Positions 4,249 through 55,036 of a stretch of 64,000 nucleotides of DNA are shown here, piece after piece. The stretch is from sequence record LC739535.1. One strand, given 5' to 3'. A program made the position numbers and the translations under genes. A model generated the notes under the pieces. That model made no database searches. It was not told the origin of the DNA and worked only from the letters and a program-made list of their open reading frames with translations. Within the stretch, counting starts at the first letter, position 1; every line of letters begins with the position of its first letter. This DNA comes from Escherichia phage phiWec186.

Positions 4249-6922
4249 AGTCGTAATATTTCAAACCTGTAATAAACTTCGATCCCCAATCCGCACTTGC
4301 GGCGGTGAACGTCAACATCCAAGTTGTAGCTGTACCAGTGAAGACCTCTCGTTGCACAGTACCATCAGTGTGGTAAATGTCCACGCCAGTATGTCCATTC
4401 TTAGGAATAGTGAAGGTAACAGCACTGGTAGTGTCTCGTGCATAAGAACAAACAAATGGTGTCCCCGCCCAGACTGGATTTGTCAAATCACCCATCTCAA
4501 GTTGTGGAACCCAAGCAATAAGACCTGCCGTACCATCTCCTGCGAAAGTGTCTGATCCACTTGCATTCAAAGCTATAATCTCATAGGTTATAGATGCTTG
4601 TTTGGCAACTGTCACTTTGTGTAGAATTACACGATACCAACCATTCCCCATATCGATTATGTTTGCATCTGCACCTGTAAATGTTCCAGCTACAAGATCA
4701 TAAGTCCCTTCGTTAATCTCATCTCCTGAAGTCAATTTGAGTTTCACTTTAGTGATCCCGTCTGGCTTCAAGAATACGGATGCCGCCCAGTGCTTACCTG
4801 CTGTAATATCAGAAGCTGTATTCACTGCTGATAAAATATGTTGTCCTGAAGTTGTAGAAGGTGTTAACTTGTAAGTGTTAGCCGTAGTTCCAATCGGAGA
4901 GTTGATTGTTGATGCTGTGACTGTCAAGTTCGTCTTCAACCACGGGGAAGCTGTTGTCAAGTTATTGTTGATAAAGATATGTGTACGGTTGGCTGCTACA
5001 ACACGTCTACCTTGTGGAGTTGTACCAACATATTCTAAAGGTGCTACGGGAGCAGAACTCTCTGTAGGTACAAGGATATCTCCAGAAGTCCTGGCATAAC
5101 GGTTACTCCTGTTGACCTTTACATCCACCGGAATAGTTTCTTGCGTCAAATCATAGTCCATCACAATCACCACAGCATTCACTGCGAGATAAGAACTATC
5201 TTCGGCAGTTACCACGCCTTGATAAGTTGCTCTACAACCAATACGACAATCTCCATCAGTAACCGCTGTAATAACGCCTGTAACGGGGTCAACTGTTGCT
5301 ACTGTAGGGTCGTTAGAGAAATACTCAACAACCATACCAGGGAGGTTTTCTGCCCCTGCTGGGGTTATTTCTGCCACCAATGTTTGCGTTGTCCCTTCAT
5401 CCATAGCTGAAAGACTTGGAGTATACACTTCCAACGTTGAAGCATAACCTCCAGAGCTATCTGATAAAGTTGTTCCTGCTGCATTCAGTGCTGTCATCCC
5501 CGCATCAAAACCACCTTCAGCCACAAACGTCATCAAACCAGAAGCAGATATTGTCATGTACGCTGGGGCAGATGTTGTGTAAGCTTCATTGAAGATTTTG
5601 GCTCCTGAAGGACTTACTGAATAGGTTAACTGTTTGCTCCCACCAACAATACAAATACCTAAAGAATCTGTAGTTAAACTGGTAGCCAACTCTGATCCTA
5701 AGATCGAATCTTGTGAAATAGGTGCGAACTTGTTAGAATTCAACGTCCCATTAAACAGAGGATTGGTCTTACCATCAACAGTAACACCAGAGTAAAACAG
5801 ATTACCATCGTAGACAAAGAAAGTTGCATGGTAGCCTAACTGGTTAGTCACATCCAGATTCTGACTGTGGACACTTGTTAGTTTGCTCATGTCCCAACTC
5901 GGAACACCTTCGGGCTTAAGAGGCTTCTCAACAACCAAAGGATCTGTTGCCAGAGATGCGTAACCAACACCTAAGTTTCCTGTGTAGTTTTTACCTACAG
6001 CCCACAAACTGTTATTAATACTTAAGAAGAAAGCGTGGCGACTCATTGGGAAACTCCATGCAGAGAAACCGCCAGAGAAGTTGCTTACTTTCGTATAAGT
6101 TGTCGCAGTGTTAGAACGTGCATACAAATAATTCGTTGTTCCAGTACCGCCAGAGGTATCTCCAATTACCAATGTCTGGGAAACTGTGTTAACGTAATCT
6201 TTCACATAAACTGTTTCGGTAGAAGATATAGTCGCAGTAACGAAAGCTGTTGTTGTACTGTTGTTACCTGCCATACCTTTGCTTGCACCGCAAACACGTA
6301 ATGAACCAACGTTGTTAAGGTAAGAACATTGGTTGTATCCTGCATCAAATGCTAAAGCAACAGAAGTTATTTGACGTGGACTTGGGATTTGGTTAGTATT
6401 ACTTGAACCAAGGCTCCCCACTGTGTTTTGTCCTGAACCATAAAGCACTCCATTGTTCATGAGCCACAAGGTATTATTATAACCCCCTTTAACCTCTTTC
6501 AGGTTGGCTAAGGTTATGATTGAGGTAATAGACGATGGGAAGCTGGTCCACGTAGTCATGCAAACATCAGCGCCGCCAGCGGCTGTAGATCCAACAAGAC
6601 CTGCTAACAAGCCAGCATACTGCCAACCACCACTTTGAAGCTTGATAACGAAGCAACGATCTGCCGGAAATATATCTTCTGCTGTTGTTGATGCCAAATG
6701 GAAGGTAGAGTATTTTGCTGTACGTGTGCCGTCAGCAATCTCTCCGAACACATTATCCCCTTGAGTGAATAAACGCCCATCGTTCAAGAGGAGAGCTAAA
6801 CTGGTTTTAGAGTTGCCAGAAGCGTCTGGGTAATCTAAAGTTATTACTTTCTTGATTATTCCTGCTGGAAGTGGAACTACACCTGTGCTGGTCATAATCA
6901 TCATTACTGGAATTGGAAACAT
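4247..6922 (-). CDS. long tail fibre / receptor-binding protein
   Basis: 891-aa Ser/Thr/Gly/Asn-rich beta-type protein at the distal end of the tail module. Confidence 0.55.
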   Translation of the reverse strand: MFPIPVMMIMTSTGVVPLPAGIIKKVITLDYPDASGNSKTSLALLLNDGRLFTQGDNVFGEIADGTRTAKYSTFHLASTTAEDIFPADRCFVIKLQSGGWQYAGLLAGLVGSTAAGGADVCMTTWTSFPSSITSIITLANLKEVKGGYNNTLWLMNNGVLYGSGQNTVGSLGSSNTNQIPSPRQITSVALAFDAGYNQCSYLNNVGSLRVCGASKGMAGNNSTTTAFVTATISSTETVYVKDYVNTVSQTLVIGDTSGGTGTTNYLYARSNTATTYTKVSNFSGGFSAWSFPMSRHAFFLSINNSLWAVGKNYTGNLGVGYASLATDPLVVEKPLKPEGVPSWDMSKLTSVHSQNLDVTNQLGYHATFFVYDGNLFYSGVTVDGKTNPLFNGTLNSNKFAPISQDSILGSELATSLTTDSLGICIVGGSKQLTYSVSPSGAKIFNEAYTTSAPAYMTISASGLMTFVAEGGFDAGMTALNAAGTTLSDSSGGYASTLEVYTPSLSAMDEGTTQTLVAEITPAGAENLPGMVVEYFSNDPTVATVDPVTGVITAVTDGDCRIGCRATYQGVVTAEDSSYLAVNAVVIVMDYDLTQETIPVDVKVNRSNRYARTSGDILVPTESSAPVAPLEYVGTTPQGRRVVAANRTHIFINNNLTTASPWLKTNLTVTASTINSPIGTTANTYKLTPSTTSGQHILSAVNTASDITAGKHWAASVFLKPDGITKVKLKLTSGDEINEGTYDLVAGTFTGADANIIDMGNGWYRVILHKVTVAKQASITYEIIALNASGSDTFAGDGTAGLIAWVPQLEMGDLTNPVWAGTPFVCSYARDTTSAVTFTIPKNGHTGVDIYHTDGTVQREVFTGTATTWMLTFTAASADWGSKFITGLKYYD

Positions 6923-16217: not shown

Positions 16218-16474
16218 TACTCATCCTCTTTGTTGTGTTCAGGGGTGGAAGACCTACCCCAACGCAGGTCTATTAGATTTTTCATTAGTCGTGAGGGAGT
16301 GACCATAAAAACAAAAGCCCAGCCCATCCATTCAGGAATTTCTTTTTCTATTCCTAAAAAGATGAACATGCCTGTCATTGTCATCATACCTACGGCGTTC
16401 CATACTTTAGTGGAACTTACCCCGTTCCCAGGGTAAGTGCAGAACATGCCACGTAAAAATTTTTTAATGCTCAT
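16217..16474 (-). CDS. small membrane protein (two predicted TM helices)
   Basis: Hydrophobic stretches MMTMTGMFIFLGI and WMGWAFVFMV. Confidence 0.4.
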   Translation of the reverse strand: MSIKKFLRGMFCTYPGNGVSSTKVWNAVGMMTMTGMFIFLGIEKEIPEWMGWAFVFMVTPSRLMKNLIDLRWGRSSTPEHNKEDE

Positions 16475-16475
16475 A

Positions 16476-19307
16476 TTATGGCCTCAAATCAATACCGATG
16501 TTTGGTAAGCTGGATTGTGCATTGCTTCGACGATACAAAGCGTACAGACCAAAGCCACGGAGGATTTCTCCAGAGTGGAAACCAAACGCCGGAGCGTTAT
16601 CATTTGCAGAATCAGGGTTAGAACTCCAAGAACCGTTCATTACATGGTTAGGACCAGCAACAACATAATTCTCTTGCAGGAGGTCAAAGCAACGATCCGC
16701 TACGATGGAAATATTAGGGATCTGGTTTTCCAGATTAGCCAACCCGATATAACAACAACCTGCCAAGAACAACGCAGACATGTGTGATGTAAAGTCCCAC
16801 GTAGGAGCCGAGACTGTGCCATCAGGCATGAAGATTGTAGGGGTACGCCCTTCGTTGTTGTCTTGGAACCACTTCAGATAGTTCACCCAGTTCTTAGTTA
16901 CTGTCATGAGTTTGGCTGGAATAGGTTCACCACGAGCTTGCAGTTCATGCAAACAACGAGCACCACAATAGAATGCACGAGCTTCATATCCGTCCCAAGC
17001 TTTTTCATTCCAGTGTTTCATTGTGAACTGGTTCTTTTCCCCGTACTTCAATGCATCCCAACGATCCCATACAAAGGCTTGAGCCATTGGTCCAGGCATA
17101 ACCGGATCAAATGTTTCATAGAACCACATTTGAGAGTCATAAAGGAAGTTGATACTTTCTGTTAAGCGTGTATACTCAATATTCTCACCAGCAAAGCAAT
17201 ACAATACTGGGTACTGATATCCAGGGTAGGGCAGTCCACGCCAACCATCAAAGAGCGCCGTATTAGGATCGCTAATGTTGGAGAATGGAATAATACCTGG
17301 TGTGTAATGGAGGCTATTCAGTTTGTAGTCAACAATTACGCAGTCGCCAAGTTTCGCGCTGTATGGATTTTGTGCTTGCAAAGAGATGCGGAAATACATT
17401 GTGTAATCATCACCATTTGCAGAAGAATACCGAGTAGGCACTTCATTCACACAATACCAATCAAACTGTGCGTTAACACCATTAACAGGATCAGTGTCCA
17501 GCCCAATGTTGATTTGGTCGAGAGCACTAATGTCGATAGTTGCAGGTTTAGGATCTGTTTCTGGGTGATTCGGTTGCCAAGAGCTTAACTGGAAACTTGC
17601 CGCAGTTATTGTCTTAGTTACCCAAGTCCCACCAGTTTTCTCCAACATAGCCCACCATCTCCATCCGTCTTTATCCGTCAATGTGATATTGAAATCATCA
17701 TTGTAAGTACGGTAAGATAAAGATTGGAGTGGTGCTACTTCTTCATCCAGTAGCCAGAAGCCAATAGAGATTCCACCGTCAGTATCCATAACCGCAGTGC
17801 AAATCTGATCGCTAATGTTGGCAGGTAAAATATTCGTCGTATACTGGAAGTTTACCACAGTATTGTCACCCCAGTCAATAACATTTCGCGGATCAGCAAC
17901 AATATACTGTCCACCGCCTGGAGGTGTCGAACGAATAAAACTGGATAATGGAATATCCATTGATTGGATAGAGGTTGTCGCTGTCGGAATACCGCAACGA
18001 TAATCTACCAAATCGTCATTCGTTTTTGTCTTACTCAAAGACAATTCAGGACGGAAGATAACAGGGACACCCGCATCATCCACACCTGCAAACTCTACAC
18101 GCAATTTGGAATTATTATCCACACGGAACCAAATAGCTTGTTGCTCCATTGTCGTCTGTGCAGCCACCTTCTGACGAATGGTAATGTACCCTTGAGCATC
18201 ACGACCAAAATCAGCCGTAGATCCTGATGGATAGTAATAATCATAACTAATACCATCTGTGAACGGAATACTTGCCAATGTGGATTTACGGAAGAACTTG
18301 TCGAAACGGTCGATATCAGAGTAATCAATACAAACCATCAAAGAAGACTTCCACGCCAGACGATACTTTTCTTCTCCGGTGATCTTGTACATCATGTAAC
18401 AAGCATCGCACCACCAAGTTTCAGCATCGGAAGCATTATCTGCAAACGAAATATCAATCGGAACGTTTACAGGGCGGTTATGCCACATTTCGTTACGTCC
18501 GATCAGATAACCACCTTTGTCTACAGGGTTGCATGTTGCGTAGTTGAACTTATAGTTTCCAGTGACTGTCTTATTTTTCAGTTGAACCGTACCATACTCG
18601 GAAAGAGAGTGTCCAGTAGAAAGAATGTTTCCGTCCCAGTCTACTTTACGTCCCAGACGATCAATAATCCAATCCACATCCCACTGACTGCCCTTAACAT
18701 CCCAATCTGTTGATCCGTCTGCTTTGGTGCCATACACTGTAGCGTTTACAGAGTTCCATCCCAGATTACCGTTGAAAGCAAACCAAGCTTTATCCAGGTA
18801 TTCTCCCCAATGCGGAGCGCCTTTAGGAATCACTGTACGTCCGTTGGTCCAAGTCATCACGCTTCCTTTAAAGCCGCCGTGAGTTGGATACCCATCGTCT
18901 GTCAGAGGGTAGTGAGCCAAACGAGGCTCCTTTCCGTTGATGATCCAGTTAGGACGATATTTTGCCGGAGGATTAGGGATTGGCTGACCACCAAAAAAGT
19001 GGTCAATGTAAGCTTGCCAGTAAGTTTTAGCCAGGTCAAGATACTTAACATCGCCAGTCCCCAAATAAGCATAAGCACACCCCAGAACTAAAACAGATTG
19101 ACCTTCTGTGGTCGCATCTCCGTTGGGCTGTCCTTCCTGTCCAGTCCAGTTGATGAAGTGTCGGTTGTTTGCAAGAACATGCTCTGGGTTGATAAGGTAG
19201 TGCTGTACCGTTGGATCGATTGTCAAACCTGTGCTTCTTTCCATGAACTGGACATGACCATCAATCAGTTGGAAAGCATTATCAATATTGTGCTTAATTT
19301 GAGACAT
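16476..19307 (-). CDS. large baseplate-associated protein, possible carbohydrate-active receptor-binding protein
   Basis: 943 aa, Trp/Tyr/Asp-rich; inserted between gp25-like and gpJ-like genes. Confidence 0.4.
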   Translation of the reverse strand: MSQIKHNIDNAFQLIDGHVQFMERSTGLTIDPTVQHYLINPEHVLANNRHFINWTGQEGQPNGDATTEGQSVLVLGCAYAYLGTGDVKYLDLAKTYWQAYIDHFFGGQPIPNPPAKYRPNWIINGKEPRLAHYPLTDDGYPTHGGFKGSVMTWTNGRTVIPKGAPHWGEYLDKAWFAFNGNLGWNSVNATVYGTKADGSTDWDVKGSQWDVDWIIDRLGRKVDWDGNILSTGHSLSEYGTVQLKNKTVTGNYKFNYATCNPVDKGGYLIGRNEMWHNRPVNVPIDISFADNASDAETWWCDACYMMYKITGEEKYRLAWKSSLMVCIDYSDIDRFDKFFRKSTLASIPFTDGISYDYYYPSGSTADFGRDAQGYITIRQKVAAQTTMEQQAIWFRVDNNSKLRVEFAGVDDAGVPVIFRPELSLSKTKTNDDLVDYRCGIPTATTSIQSMDIPLSSFIRSTPPGGGQYIVADPRNVIDWGDNTVVNFQYTTNILPANISDQICTAVMDTDGGISIGFWLLDEEVAPLQSLSYRTYNDDFNITLTDKDGWRWWAMLEKTGGTWVTKTITAASFQLSSWQPNHPETDPKPATIDISALDQINIGLDTDPVNGVNAQFDWYCVNEVPTRYSSANGDDYTMYFRISLQAQNPYSAKLGDCVIVDYKLNSLHYTPGIIPFSNISDPNTALFDGWRGLPYPGYQYPVLYCFAGENIEYTRLTESINFLYDSQMWFYETFDPVMPGPMAQAFVWDRWDALKYGEKNQFTMKHWNEKAWDGYEARAFYCGARCLHELQARGEPIPAKLMTVTKNWVNYLKWFQDNNEGRTPTIFMPDGTVSAPTWDFTSHMSALFLAGCCYIGLANLENQIPNISIVADRCFDLLQENYVVAGPNHVMNGSWSSNPDSANDNAPAFGFHSGEILRGFGLYALYRRSNAQSSLPNIGIDLRP

Positions 19308-19780
19308 TAGATCACTCCCGCCATCACCATACTTCCAATCCAGGAAGCACCGTTGTCTAAACTGATAAATTCAAAAGTATCGATCGCACCTTGACGATAA
19401 CTCAAAACAGGTGCACGCCCAAAACTCCACTTAACCGACGCTGGCCATACCACTTTATTCGCCCCACTACCCTGACGCAAAGCCAGACTAAAGTTTAAAA
19501 CTGTTGCTGTGGTAACGGGAATGTTTGTAAAGCTGATCGTACAAGTAGCAGAAGAGAGGGTAGCATAAAAATACTCTGCTGATCCCACATCTAAAGCTAA
19601 GGTACTGGTGGCGGTGCCACGGGTACTTAAACGGTTACGAGTAACCCCAGCACCATTCAAAAGAACACGAAGGGACGTTTTCTTAGTTATCCCTGCCTGA
19701 TCCGTTACAAAGAAATCTGTATCTGAAACAGACGTGGTTTGAACCAAATCTGTAACTTTGATAGTTGTTAAATCTGCCAT
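19307..19780 (-). CDS. hypothetical structural protein
   Basis: ORF within the baseplate cluster, translationally coupled to its neighbours. Confidence 0.45.
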   Translation of the reverse strand: MADLTTIKVTDLVQTTSVSDTDFFVTDQAGITKKTSLRVLLNGAGVTRNRLSTRGTATSTLALDVGSAEYFYATLSSATCTISFTNIPVTTATVLNFSLALRQGSGANKVVWPASVKWSFGRAPVLSYRQGAIDTFEFISLDNGASWIGSMVMAGVI

Positions 19781-22586: not shown

Positions 22587-23321
22587 TTACCCTCCGTTAT
22601 TCGACGGTGTATTAGTATCTCTTGCAGCATTTTGGTTAATTGGGTTAGTGACTTTAGCACCACCAGTTGGAGCCTTGCTCTTAACCTCGCCACCAGTAGA
22701 TTTGTTCGGGGCAGTCTTCACAGCTATCGCGTTAGTTGTTGCAGTGCTGACCAAACGAATCTGCTCCAATTCCAGGTTGAACTGCATAGCGAATTCTGAA
22801 CGATATTCGTAAGTGTAACCTTTCAGGATCACGTTCTCGAAAGTACGGTGTTCTGTTAATAGAACTATCGGTTGACGAGCATCAAAAATCTGATCAAGGT
22901 ACTCGATTGCTTGGGAAATACGTGTTCCATTAACCCCTGCACTGTAAAGCTGATCACGCATCAAACGTACAGGCGTTTCTGTAATAACACCTGTCAATTT
23001 AAAAGTGTTGTTGTTTATTTTGACGTTATCACTCACTGTACTGCCGGATTCAACAGGGAAGCTTGTGATATCTGCTGAACGAGTTACTCCAACTTCCGGT
23101 GCGGAGTCGAAAGTAATCGCCATAAAGTTTTGTATGTATTGATCACTTGAGCTATTGTAAACACTGGCTAAGATACAAAAACCGTTATCACCTTTCACCG
23201 TGGAGGCGGAGTTATTCGTATTTTGTGTTGAGTTCACCTCTTGCTCGGATTTGTAGACGGCTCTTACCGACTGTTGTGGAGTCATTGCTGCCATGATAAC
23301 CTCATAGTAATGGTAATGCAA
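22587..23321 (-). CDS. hypothetical tail protein
   Basis: ORF in the tail module, downstream of the tape measure. Confidence 0.45.
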   Translation of the reverse strand: MHYHYYEVIMAAMTPQQSVRAVYKSEQEVNSTQNTNNSASTVKGDNGFCILASVYNSSSDQYIQNFMAITFDSAPEVGVTRSADITSFPVESGSTVSDNVKINNNTFKLTGVITETPVRLMRDQLYSAGVNGTRISQAIEYLDQIFDARQPIVLLTEHRTFENVILKGYTYEYRSEFAMQFNLELEQIRLVSTATTNAIAVKTAPNKSTGGEVKSKAPTGGAKVTNPINQNAARDTNTPSNNGG

Positions 23322-23396
23322 AGAGGAAGATGCAAGATCTTCCCATATTGATTATGATACCACAAATGTCGTCGTTATGTCAATGTAAAAATAATT

Positions 23397-23425
23397 CTTG
23401 ACTACCATGATCCGCCTTGCTACAC
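23397..23425 (+). promoter_or_regulatory. sigma70-like promoter (TTGACT, 17 bp spacer, TACACT)
   Basis: Near-consensus hexamers read directly, followed by AAGGAGG and ATG at 23452. Confidence 0.55.
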
Positions 23426-23451
23426 TGTATTTATTAACTAAGGAGGAAATT

Positions 23452-24465
23452 ATGGGCGTGATTAAAGGTTGGGACATTCAGAAGAAAGAATGTGAAGAAG
23501 TGGCAAGACCAGGTATTACTGTTCTTGGATTTGTTGAACCGTGGAATGGTGCACATACCAAACTGATGCTGAAATGTGAGAAGCATGGGGAATGGAATAC
23601 AACCTCCATCAACAACTTCAAAAAGAATGGTTCTGGTTGTAATGGTTGTAGAGCGGATATATGTGGTGCAAGAGCAGAAGGGAATAGCTTTGCAAGTAAA
23701 AATGCTATCTCAGATGAGCAACACATTAAGGATTTCTTGGCTACCGGATTGTTTGCAGAGGGGACAACCTTCGTCAATACAGGTGTGAAAACAAAAGGTA
23801 ATCACAACTGCGTGTGGAAAGTAAGTTGCCCTGTTTGTGCTGTGGATGTATATTCTCAAGCTGGTTTATGTGATGGTAGTTTTGAAGGTCTGACTACACA
23901 CCTTAAGGCTGGAAAGGTTCCTTGTCGTTGCTCTCCACGTCATTGCTATTCTAAAGACCAATGGTTGTTTAGATTTCAGTTAATGTGTGAAGAAAAAGGT
24001 TATACTTTCATCAAGGCCATCTACGAAGGGGAAGCATACTCTCATGGAGATGTTGAGTATGCTTGTCCAGAACACGGCTCACAACGCATGACTGTGAAGA
24101 ACCTCATGTCAGGTAAAGGTTGTCCAGAGTGTGCCAATAAAACACAACAGTTCTGTTATATCAATGAAGTGTATGATGAAGATAATAATCTCTGCGCTCT
24201 TAAATTTGGAATTGCCAATGATGCTGAACGTAGGATCAAAGGTCAGAACTCGAAGAATGCTTTCACAATGCAACAGAAAGCTGTCTACTTCTTTGATGAT
24301 ATCAAGTCGTGTCGAGCAGCAGAAAGGAAGTGTTTGAAGATGTTGAAGTGCGGTGTTGTGAATAAATTTCAATTGCAGGATGGACACACAGAAACAACCC
24401 ATCTGGACAATTACGAAATTATTGAGGCTATTTACGAAAGTTTTGGAGGGGTGTTACAGAAATGA
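23452..24465 (+). CDS. Cys-rich protein with three zinc-ribbon-like repeats and a C-terminal GIY-YIG/T5orf172-like domain; putative free-standing homing endonuclease
   Basis: Three repeats of C..HG...G.GC..C; C-terminal CYINEVYDEDNNLCALKFGIANDAERRIKGQ resembles GIY...YIG...R...E; opposite strand to the surrounding tail genes, with its own promoter. Confidence 0.45.
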   Translation: MGVIKGWDIQKKECEEVARPGITVLGFVEPWNGAHTKLMLKCEKHGEWNTTSINNFKKNGSGCNGCRADICGARAEGNSFASKNAISDEQHIKDFLATGLFAEGTTFVNTGVKTKGNHNCVWKVSCPVCAVDVYSQAGLCDGSFEGLTTHLKAGKVPCRCSPRHCYSKDQWLFRFQLMCEEKGYTFIKAIYEGEAYSHGDVEYACPEHGSQRMTVKNLMSGKGCPECANKTQQFCYINEVYDEDNNLCALKFGIANDAERRIKGQNSKNAFTMQQKAVYFFDDIKSCRAAERKCLKMLKCGVVNKFQLQDGHTETTHLDNYEIIEAIYESFGGVLQK

Positions 24466-24467
24466 AA

Positions 24468-24492
24468 AAAGGGGCCGAAGCCCCTTTCTTAG
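24468..24492. terminator. bidirectional rho-independent terminator
   Basis: GGGGC-CGAA-GCCCC hairpin with an A-run upstream and T-rich tract downstream. Confidence 0.6.
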
Positions 24493-26444
24493 TTACCACC
24501 AGATTGTCCACTTAAAGTAGCTAAAGTTAAACGGTTGAAAACATTGTTACCACTGTTCTGAATACGAGCATCCAACATATTACCAAACTCCGAAGACGGG
24601 TTGATTGTTACGTTGATCAGATCACTCGGAATAGCAATCGTGTTTTCTACAATAGGTTGGTTACGAGCCAGATTAACGTTTGGCGTATAAGCTGTTTCAC
24701 GCAAATTCTCTAAAGGATTCCCGAAACCGAAAGCATGTGTTCGAGTTTCTTCTCCTCGGAACATTCTTCCAACGTCTTGAGTATCAATTCCAGTCCACTT
24801 ATAAAGGAAGTCGGCTACTGGGTTGGTATCTCCTGATTGTGTTGCGGCGTACAATTTGTCCGGTATAGTTTTATTAGGATCAGAATCCGGTCCGAAGATA
24901 GATGGTAAGTTTGTCACTAACCATTTATTAATATCTTCCGTGATACCGATAATCTCTGTACCAAACTTAGCAACATTCAGTGTGGCATTTGCAAACTCCA
25001 CCCCAAGATTCTTGGCAAAATTGTCCAAAGATTTAACGTTATCTAACCAAGATTCGTCTTTAGGTATTGCACTCATAAATCCTTCCAGGAAATAGTTCTG
25101 CATCCCTTGACCAACCAAACCTATTGTTGCAGTTAAACGTGTGTACTGTTTAGAAGCTTCCATTTGCTCATTAGTCAATGCAGCACCAGTACGTTGAAGC
25201 ATACGGAGGGTTTCTTGGAAGCCTTCTCCGTTCTTGCTAAACATACGTTGGTAATGCATGAGGTCATCTCCAAGGTTCTCAAGAAGACGACCAATCTGTG
25301 CCGAGTTCATGCCGCGACGCTCACCTTCATTCACAGTTGCCTGGATGAAAGCTAACGGATCGTTCTGCATGTGCTTAATTTGCGAAGGGTTCCAGCCGAA
25401 CATGTTCATGATATCGTTGATACCGTTGTCCCCGCCACGCCATTTTCCTTTCTTCTCGTCCCATTCAGAAGCCATCATCGAGTTACCTAAACGTTCACGA
25501 ACGTCTTTAAGGTTATCGATTGACTTGATAATGTTTGCCGAGTCAACACCGTTCTGTTCACCCCAAGCAGTCATTGTCATAATGGCGTTGGCGTTTGCCT
25601 GAACGTTCTCTGCACCACGACCTACAAACTTGATACGATCATTAGCATTTTGCAAAGTGTTCCCTACAACAGAGCCACCTGCAAATAACCCTGCACCGAT
25701 CATAGAAGAAACCATCATACGAGGGTTAAGACCTAAAGCACCATCTCGCATTTGGGAATACTTACGTTCCTTATCTCGACGTTGTTGTGCCAATTCTCGT
25801 TTATGGTTACGTTCAATATCGCGCAACTCTTTATCACGCATACGTTGACGTTGCTTGGCTTCTGCTTCCAGTTCTCGACGAATCCTACGGCGACCACGAA
25901 CCTCATCCTCAATATCTTTCGTTTTTTCTCTGTGGGATTTACGAAGGTTATCAAGCTGATGGGCCAGAGTTTGGTTCATACGTTGAAGAGTGATATCTCC
26001 ACGTTTGTATGATTCTACAGAGGCATCCATGATTTGTTTTGCTTGGCGTTGTGCATCTATGGAAGCTTTGGTATATTGCATACCACGCTTCTCAAAATTC
26101 TCCATGCGGAGGTTGCCTAAATCGTTACGACGAGCTTGGAGTTCTGCTGCGCGTTCTTCTGGTGTTTTCTTACCTGGTTTCGTTGGACGACCAGGACCGG
26201 AGGTAGTTCCACCACCTTTTGGAGCAGAAGGGGGAGCAGGGCGAGCAGGGAAAGTCTGCGCTTTACGCATTTCTCTTTCGATCTCTTTCATCTGCTGCCT
26301 AAATTTACTCATGTTTAAGGTAGGTTGGATTTTTTCAGCGAACCTTTTAATACTTTCGACAGAATCTTTGGCCTCTTTGAGACTGTTCTTGTCCACCTTA
26401 AATGTGACTACGTTACTGATTTTTGAGGCATTAATATCTAACAA
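24489..26444 (-). CDS. tail tape measure protein
   Basis: 651 aa; long Arg/Glu/Lys-rich helical N-terminal region and Gly/Met-rich middle; follows the chaperone gene. Confidence 0.7.
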   Translation of the reverse strand: MLDINASKISNVVTFKVDKNSLKEAKDSVESIKRFAEKIQPTLNMSKFRQQMKEIEREMRKAQTFPARPAPPSAPKGGGTTSGPGRPTKPGKKTPEERAAELQARRNDLGNLRMENFEKRGMQYTKASIDAQRQAKQIMDASVESYKRGDITLQRMNQTLAHQLDNLRKSHREKTKDIEDEVRGRRRIRRELEAEAKQRQRMRDKELRDIERNHKRELAQQRRDKERKYSQMRDGALGLNPRMMVSSMIGAGLFAGGSVVGNTLQNANDRIKFVGRGAENVQANANAIMTMTAWGEQNGVDSANIIKSIDNLKDVRERLGNSMMASEWDEKKGKWRGGDNGINDIMNMFGWNPSQIKHMQNDPLAFIQATVNEGERRGMNSAQIGRLLENLGDDLMHYQRMFSKNGEGFQETLRMLQRTGAALTNEQMEASKQYTRLTATIGLVGQGMQNYFLEGFMSAIPKDESWLDNVKSLDNFAKNLGVEFANATLNVAKFGTEIIGITEDINKWLVTNLPSIFGPDSDPNKTIPDKLYAATQSGDTNPVADFLYKWTGIDTQDVGRMFRGEETRTHAFGFGNPLENLRETAYTPNVNLARNQPIVENTIAIPSDLINVTINPSSEFGNMLDARIQNSGNNVFNRLTLATLSGQSGGN

Positions 26445-55006: not shown

Positions 55007-55010
55007 TAAG

Positions 55011-55036
55011 AAAGGGGCTTCGGCCCCTTTTTTAAT
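55011..55036 (+). terminator. rho-independent terminator
   Basis: GGGGC-TTCG-GCCCC hairpin followed by TTTTTTAATTT. Confidence 0.65.

Follow-up and report, generated by a model that had tools for sequence, protein, structure and literature searches.

What does a lone plus-strand gene do in the middle of a minus-strand tail module? The question is raised by Escherichia phage phiWec186, of which we analyzed a stretch of 64,000 nucleotides (LC739535.1; hereafter the window). Between a Dit-like baseplate gene (22587..23321) and the tape measure gene (24489..26444), both on the minus strand, lies a gene whose product, BDU12001.1, carries only the label hypothetical protein in GenBank, and which is unmentioned in the paper on these phages (PMC12695924). 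The window is 100% identical to Escherichia phages phiWec181 (LC739534) and phiWec179 (LC739533); the phiWec phages belong to the Stephanstirmvirinae, and the genus 'Wecvirus' was recently proposed (PMC12695924). In our view, the gene is probably a homing endonuclease gene (HEG) that is free-standing, belongs to the T5orf172/CapR class, and occupies a site not described before. This reading is based on its CapR and T5orf172/GIY-YIG domains, its presence and absence among relatives, the orthologues found at the same site, and a history discordant with that of the flanking genes, and it supports the homing-endonuclease cassette suggested in a preliminary description of the window.

The position and orientation of the gene, reported there as a single plus-strand gene between the tape measure and the downstream tail genes, were confirmed by an open reading frame (ORF) scan and by annotation. 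In the gene-less relative PsgM04F, all annotated coding sequences across the ~30-kb structural block are on the minus strand, and the endonuclease gene is therefore the sole opposite-strand gene of the late block. The scan returned a plus-strand ORF at 23398..24465 with a TTG start, this TTG being part of the −35 hexamer of a promoter-like site. The true start is almost certainly the ATG at 23452, to judge from its position five bases past AAGGAGG (23440-23446), which bears out the strong ribosome-binding site (RBS) noted earlier; the same ATG is the GenBank start for BDU12001.1, and the product has 337 residues. With its promoter, conserved 5′ untranslated region (UTR) including the RBS, and ORF, the gene is a self-contained unit that runs antisense to the late tail operon. 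No paralogue was found within the window, the two other copies of the family in the phage record being outside it. The coding sequence and the parts of its product are as follows (AF2, AlphaFold2):

23452..24465, plus strand: coding sequence of the 337-residue zinc-finger/T5orf172 endonuclease-family protein, stop TGA at 24463-24465 (ORF scan, Pfam, PHROG, GenBank)
23467..23661, plus strand: zinc module 1, residues ~6-70, ligands C42, H45, C63 and C66 in a CxxH...CxxC arrangement (Pfam CapR stretches, invariant columns, AF2 secondary structure)
23707..23940, plus strand: zinc module 2, residues ~86-163, ligands C126, C129, C158 and C160 in a CxxC-28-CxC arrangement (Pfam, alignment, AF2)
23947..24144, plus strand: zinc module 3, residues ~166-231, ligands C205, H208, C224 and C227 (Pfam, alignment, AF2)
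24145..24462, plus strand: T5orf172/GIY-YIG-fold nuclease domain, residues 232-337 (Y236, K251-F-G253, R261 and E314 conserved)

The DNA-binding part of the protein was recognized readily. The Pfam CapR homology domain (PF21817) scored 94.8 bits (cutoff 24.2; E = 3.6e-27) and matched in three stretches, and the same profile was matched by all 37 of the 37 homologues that we aligned; PHROG 681, 'endonuclease', was matched with E = 4e-56. The three zinc-ribbon-like modules of the preliminary description thus correspond to the three CapR stretches, and the twelve Cys/His ligands that they contribute are invariant or nearly so in the alignment. Module 2 is the best CapR match (residues 94-161) and fits the published CapR motif, CxxC...CxC (PMC8096241), with 28 residues between its paired Cys motifs compared to ~24–26 for CapR. 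Modules 1 and 3 instead use CxxH...CxxC, and module 3 also gave weak DUF723/DUF4379 treble-clef matches. The family is large: 3507 cluster representatives match at E ≤ 0.001, of which 1009 remain at E ≤ 1e-10.

The nuclease domain required closer inspection. At the fold level, the C-terminal domain was confirmed to have the GIY-YIG alpha/beta fold (beta-beta-alpha-beta-alpha core), and to this extent the earlier GIY-YIG/T5orf172 assignment stands; by Pfam alone it falls short, as the T5orf172 profile (PF10544) scored 18.2 bits where the gathering score is 20 (E = 0.0037; residues 235-327, profile positions 3-97 of 101). Twelve of the 37 homologues matched the profile at E ≤ 0.01 (best 6.3e-5), and a MUG113 match was weak. 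Among the homologues, R261 and E314 are invariant, K251 and G253 invariant or nearly so, and Y236 at least 90% conserved. An hhalign comparison of the nuclease domain with I-TevI was not significant and aligned only a 14-residue segment, in which R261 stands opposite the catalytic R27 of I-TevI. Mutation of the Glu of the T5orf172 nuclease Odn abolishes cleavage (PMC8263062), and we infer that E314 is equivalent to I-TevI E75 or Odn E180. Because a Foldseek search of the full-length model against the PDB gave nothing significant (best E = 0.02, TM 0.13), the multidomain chain needed splitting; the family profile had no match among PDB sequences. Collectively, the protein is built as 'beads on a string', with three predicted zinc-binding modules followed by a GIY-YIG-fold T5orf172 domain that has catalytic-type Arg and Glu residues.

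We then compared the locus among relatives, where it is polymorphic and occurs in three states: naive, occupied, and scar. The naive state, seen in phAPEC8, anhysbys, ESCO5 and ZCKP1, is a 126-bp intergenic region in which a different terminator comes almost immediately after the −35 box; an 80-nt probe for this allele matched 65 phage records, with an identity of ≥99% in 59. The occupied state is found in phiWec179/181 and in six metagenomic contigs, and the gene lies between the Dit-like and tape measure genes wherever both flanks are on the contig. The encoded proteins are 87% (L006), 80% (L007), 64% (L008), 65% (L018), 54% (L019), and 47% (L020) identical to that of the window. The scar state comprises three records, PsgM04F and phiWec188/190, in which window positions 23394-24444 (1051 bp) are swapped for 13–16 bp. 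Rather than being kept in all relatives and lacking any nuclease match, the gene is therefore absent at this site from PsgM04F, phiWec188/190, and 65 phAPEC8-type records. Protein and orthologue-alignment queries of IMG/VR returned only paralogues of ≤45% identity and no locus of this type. The DNA of the gene had no match in 5426 E. coli genomes, which argues against a prophage or satellite origin.

The ends of the cassette are defined by these alleles:

23394..24444, plus strand: 1051-bp segment in place of which PsgM04F, the nearest relative without the gene, has 13 bp (blastn junctions: window 23393 = PsgM04F 14384, window 24445 = PsgM04F 14398)
23384..23393, no strand assigned: cassette-linked left-end sequence TGTAAAAATA (alignments)

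The 1051-bp segment contains the promoter, the UTR, and the ORF minus its last 21 nt, stop codon included. The left-end sequence TGTAAAAATA is present in all occupied alleles with a readable left flank as well as in the scar alleles, and is not found in the naive alleles. The right end of the scar, GGAGGGG-ATTATAG, matches the last codons of the gene, GGAGGGGTGTTACAG (G-G-V-L-Q), and we assign these bases to the gene because the C-terminal motif FGGV(L)QK is common to family members at unrelated loci. Since the cassette-end sequences are retained, the scars are probably deletions of a resident gene and not virgin sites, and the nearest relatives appear to have lost the gene secondarily, instead of having a site that was never invaded. 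In PsgM04F the loss would be recent, given that the adjoining 500 bp of its tape measure gene are 99% identical to the window. A GGAGG repeat occurs both at the RBS and at the 3′ end, and a simple deletion between the two copies was rejected as the origin of the scars, which also lack the promoter. As a separate observation, PsgM04F (OR584014) is labeled 'Pseudomonas phage' with Pseudomonas coronafaciens as the recorded host, and is 95–100% identical to these E. coli sewage phages over >35 kb of structural genes, with those for the tail fibres among them; its host label deserves checking.

The occupied alleles also allowed us to evaluate selection on the gene. The ratios of nonsynonymous to synonymous substitution (dN/dS) between the window gene and its orthologues were 0.075 (L006), 0.082 (L007), and 0.19 (L008), and the gene is under purifying selection. 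All eight alleles at the site align end to end with intact ORFs and every zinc ligand kept; none is frameshifted or truncated, and the three scar genomes carry cassette-specific ends. Compared to L006, the flanking genes are 95–98% identical and the promoter 96.6%, with the ORF at 83% and dS near 1; the change in identity is sharp at the start codon, and the nuclease part is constrained at least as much as the DNA-binding part. Likewise, the L019 flank is 94% identical to the window and L020 has the same promoter, terminator and site, and the alleles of these two contigs are 42–44% identical to that of the window in the DNA-binding part. Allele histories are thus discordant with those of the flanking genes. 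Shuffling of modules was rejected as the source of this divergence, as the eight alleles share the same three modules from end to end. Across three lineages, divergence of the gene resembles that of the backbone, which points to an element that is old at the site; the comparisons suggest that it has long resided there, with alleles turning over and the gene being lost now and then.

The site is also a mosaic, or recombination, boundary at the tape measure C-terminus. Compared to the window, phiWec188 is 95% identical to the left of the site, and alignment fails to the right of it, over the final 530 bp of the tape measure gene. The C-terminus of this gene is dimorphic over window positions 24489-25020 (the last ~180 codons), with two types that are ~25% identical and a switch that begins at the endonuclease or scar site. 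Type I is found in the window, L006, PsgM04F and phAPEC8, and type II in phiWec188, L007, L008, L018, L019 and L020. Window-like alleles adjoin both types, and we accordingly rejected, as a simple model, a target of the nuclease in the variable C-terminus.

A second candidate target was suggested by an intron in one of the relatives. L008 has an ORF-less group I intron at 5889-6195 (minus strand) in its tape measure gene (Rfam RF00028, 91.3 bits, E = 1.8e-22), ~0.9 kb from its endonuclease copy and inserted at a point corresponding to window ~25281-25283; the same split gene occurs in another contig, and the tape measure gene of the window is intron-less. A free-standing endonuclease beside an ORF-less intron resembles, by analogy, the 'collaborative homing' noted for an ICP1 T5orf172 gene beside a terminase intron. 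At window ~25250-25295 (the GRLLENLGDDL codons), the protein is identical in all relatives, and the DNA exists as two haplotypes that differ by 7–8 clustered synonymous changes. This difference falls exactly at the intron insertion site, and one haplotype matches the exon beside the L008 intron. The haplotypes are uncorrelated with the presence of the endonuclease gene, and a target at the insertion site is unsupported.

We next evaluated the signals by which the gene may be expressed:

23398-23426, plus strand: predicted cassette promoter, TTGACT-17-TACACT (promoter scan, 9/12 consensus match, TG upstream; conservation in contigs)
23427..23451, plus strand: conserved 5′ UTR with RBS AAGGAGG at 23440-23446 (alignments)
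23354..23383, minus strand: native divergent sigma-70-like promoter of the Dit/baseplate operon, TTGACA-18-TATCAT (promoter scan, 11/12, TG upstream)
24466..24490, both strands: GC-rich hairpin terminator common to the tape measure and endonuclease genes (folding, alignments)

Described earlier as near-consensus, the cassette promoter proved to be only a moderate match (9/12), and this match alone proves nothing, because such sites are no commoner than in shuffled sequence (5 found, 5.9 expected). Support for the promoter comes instead from conservation: in alignments, its hexamers and 17-nt spacing are kept in L006, L007, L008 and L019 with diverging spacer letters, and L020, whose contig begins inside the promoter, keeps the −10 box and the UTR. 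We infer a transcription start near 23433. Downstream of the promoter, GTATTTATTAACTAAGGAGG is nearly invariant among orthologous cassettes, and six cassettes, with proteins as little as ~47% identical to that of the window, show no more than two changes in the first 23 nt of the UTR (23427-23449), which include the RBS; the last few bases 5′ of the start codon are variable. The promoter/UTR motif is not repeated elsewhere in the window, arguing against a general phage promoter.

The Dit/baseplate promoter stands back to back with that of the cassette and is present in occupied, scar and naive alleles alike, its −35 box (23378-23383) being the final sequence in common with the naive phAPEC8-type alleles. 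A small hairpin (23325-23343) also precedes the Dit/baseplate operon, and both this hairpin and the near-consensus promoter are conserved in all relatives; a promoter of this sigma-70 type is unexpected ahead of late structural genes. At the other end of the cassette, the hairpin proposed earlier as a bidirectional terminator does fold on both strands (−12.8 kcal/mol plus, −16.7 kcal/mol minus), with a better U-tract toward the tape measure direction. Its attribution to the arriving cassette did not hold, because the hairpin is also found in the scar alleles, which lack the gene. The naive phAPEC8-type alleles carry a different hairpin, so that arrival of the terminator with the cassette is a possibility. 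The same 25-nt hairpin (AAAGGGGCTTCGGCCCCTTTTT) recurs in the opposite orientation at window 55008-55032, after a plus-strand gene, where it is followed by a sigma-70-like promoter (TTGACA ... TACAAT).

In the mechanism that we propose for the HEG, host RNA polymerase would transcribe the gene early from its own sigma-70-like promoter, and the zinc-finger array of the product would recognize a DNA site, long and asymmetric, that lies in or close to this locus in a co-infecting relative without the gene. The GIY-YIG-type nuclease domain would then make a double-strand break at the recognized site in the gene-less genome, and recombinational repair from the HEG-bearing genome would copy the cassette in and co-convert adjoining tape measure sequence. 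The carrier genome would be immune, either by replacement of the target through the insertion or by nearby polymorphisms. Over time, the gene would be lost by deletion, giving rise to scars such as those of PsgM04F and phiWec188, and alleles would turn over at the site.

Several points weigh against this reading. The Pfam score of the nuclease domain is below threshold and its alignment with I-TevI is not significant. Eight intact alleles under strong purifying selection show less decay than the classic HEG cycle predicts. Across the three lineages (Wecvirus, L007-type and L008-type, with backbones ~77–82% identical), gene divergence is about equal to backbone divergence, which fits long vertical residence as well as recent homing. 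No flank polymorphism separates HEG-bearing from HEG-less genomes, and neither a target nor an immunity determinant was identified. Lastly, homing of T5orf172 HEGs was experimentally unverified as of Barth 2023 (PMC10448857).

Long retention of the gene would be explained if it were a domesticated conflict nuclease, similar to Odn, whose target is a satellite or a rival phage (marker exclusion). Such a role would account for dN/dS values of 0.08–0.19 with all ORFs intact across ~77%-identical lineages, as well as for the invariant nuclease residues, and there are precedents: in ICP1, T5orf172 nucleases have been turned against satellites, and a similar use has been suggested for those of the phapecoctaviruses Inny, Muut and Mt1B1_P17. 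Moreover, precisely the two genes on either side of the site have homologues in satellite-like elements on E. coli chromosomes. A Dit-like gene is present in 284 of 5426 complete E. coli genomes (~5%), and in the one element that we examined (E. coli TUM17543 chromosome, NZ_CP135643, 3894727-3900000) it adjoins an integrase gene and encodes a protein 68–71% identical to that of the phage. Beside it lies a 610-codon gene for a tape measure-like protein with a type-II-like C-terminus, and a capsid gene is also present; such elements are probably the phapecoctavirus satellites of Barth et al. 2023 (PMC10448857). We nevertheless consider a conflict nuclease unlikely, as the Pfam search found no RepA_N or other satellite-derived DNA-binding domain in the protein, its gene has no nucleotide match in the 5426 E. 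coli genomes, it has been lost in viable close relatives and is absent from most phapecoctaviruses, and the PADLOC defence-system models gave no family at E ≤ 0.1. A related idea, to which we give little credence, is that the nuclease belongs to phage-satellite or phage-phage conflict over the tail module and is not purely selfish. It is prompted by the position of the site at the junction of two genes that both have satellite homologues, and by the dimorphism of the adjoining tape measure C-terminus, one form of which is satellite-like. A fast-diverging zinc-finger array in a constant expression cassette could track variant tail-module alleles, and the nuclease might cleave the DNA of satellites or rivals, or keep recombination between the tape measure and Dit genes in check.

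Two further explanations do without a dedicated nuclease role. In one, the protein is mainly a DNA-binding regulator, comparable to CapR or to I-TevI in its autorepression, that binds the neighboring pair of back-to-back promoters and so tunes transcription of the baseplate operon or of its own gene, with a nuclease role that is secondary or lost. The cassette promoter and the −35 box of the divergent, strong Dit/baseplate promoter are 14 bp apart, CapR, with the same domain type, represses the capsid operon via a −35 element (PMC8096241), I-TevI is an autorepressor, and the 5′ UTR and promoter are kept almost perfectly across highly divergent alleles. However, the invariant nuclease Arg and Glu and the constraint on the nuclease part in the comparison with L006 would be needless in a pure regulator, and the operon functions without the gene in most relatives, so that we regard this as very unlikely. 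Less probable still is an inert relic or moron, that is, a decaying former HEG or anti-defence cargo without sequence-specific DNA cleavage. The GenBank label is hypothetical protein, the function is deduced from sequence alone, and the scar alleles show that the gene is dispensable. Against this stand the strong purifying selection on eight intact alleles, the conserved expression signals, and the domain content of a DNA-binding nuclease, and no defence or anti-defence family was matched in PADLOC or NCBIfam, which leaves the moron, anti-defence and exclusion roles considered in the preliminary description without direct support. On balance, a free-standing HEG remains our preferred reading.

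Two other regions of the window differ among these phages. The large tail protein gene at 16476-19307 (region 16467-19500) is 70–83% identical to its counterpart in phiWec188, which has an extra 2-kb gene in this region; this probably corresponds to the difference in host range that has been reported between the two proposed species. A cluster of ten tRNA genes on the minus strand (40506-42563; Met twice, Ile, Pro, Gln, Gly, Thr, Tyr, Ser and Arg) has one extra tRNA-Ser in PsgM04F and phiWec188.

Apart from providing a name for a gene that has so far been a 'hypothetical protein', the locus offers a test system. Homing of the T5orf172/CapR type has so far been deduced from genomics, and cultured E. 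coli phages carry all three alleles of this short, defined locus, namely occupied (phiWec179/181), scar (phiWec188/190, PsgM04F) and naive (phAPEC8 and many others), making cleavage mapping and co-infection crosses straightforward. The locus is also a further example of a nuclease gene at a mosaic boundary, here beside a dimorphic tape measure C-terminus. Where Stephanstirmvirinae are engineered or used in therapy, a gene of this kind could skew the outcome of recombination within cocktails.

The gene belongs to an already described family, of which it is a clear but fairly ordinary case. T5orf172 HEGs with repeated CapR/DUF723/DUF4379 zinc fingers have been described by Netter 2021 (PMC8096241) and Barth 2023 (PMC10448857), and their association with tape measure genes and genetic-exchange boundaries is part of that description (PMC8096241, PMC10448857). 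Similar to the T5orf172 HEGs of ICP1 and other phages, the gene studied here encodes several CapR-type zinc fingers in a row with a T5orf172 domain at the C-terminus, is free-standing beside essential structural genes including the tape measure gene, and has a patchy presence in close relatives at a boundary of genetic exchange. It differs from the ICP1 HEGs in its phage lineage (Stephanstirmvirinae, proposed 'Wecvirus') and its previously undescribed insertion site, in the documentation of naive, occupied and scar states, and in that all its alleles are intact, whereas frameshifted copies are common among the ICP1 HEGs. Vibrio-phage homologues are only distant, as every tblastn match outside phiWec179/181 was below 60% identity.

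Closer to home, the early-region 'endonuclease' of phapecoctaviruses (phAPEC8 gp013 / nepoznato gp115) is a paralogue with 44–46% amino acid identity, the same domain order, and a C-terminal ...YGG(I/T)LQ motif. In contrast to the gene of the window, it is co-oriented in an early operon after an ATPase gene, encodes 394 residues, and does not lie at the tape measure/Dit junction. The capsid operon repressor CapR of PLE shares the CapR homology zinc-finger domain and the CxxC...CxC motif, but is a satellite-encoded repressor without a nuclease domain, whereas the predicted protein here keeps a complete one. Odn-type nucleases likewise have a T5orf172 domain with conserved catalytic Arg and Glu, and the phage belongs to the same subfamily as the coliphage examples; unlike Odn, the protein has no RepA_N domain, and its gene does not match satellite DNA. 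Finally, the 'beads on a string' arrangement of modules, zinc finger included, the free-standing intergenic gene with its own expression signals, and the expected double-strand break followed by co-conversion recall the GIY-YIG endonucleases I-TevI and T4 Seg. The nuclease domain is N-terminal in those enzymes and C-terminal here, with no significant sequence similarity between them, and the second Tyr of the GIY-YIG motif is replaced here by K-F-G, as is typical of T5orf172.

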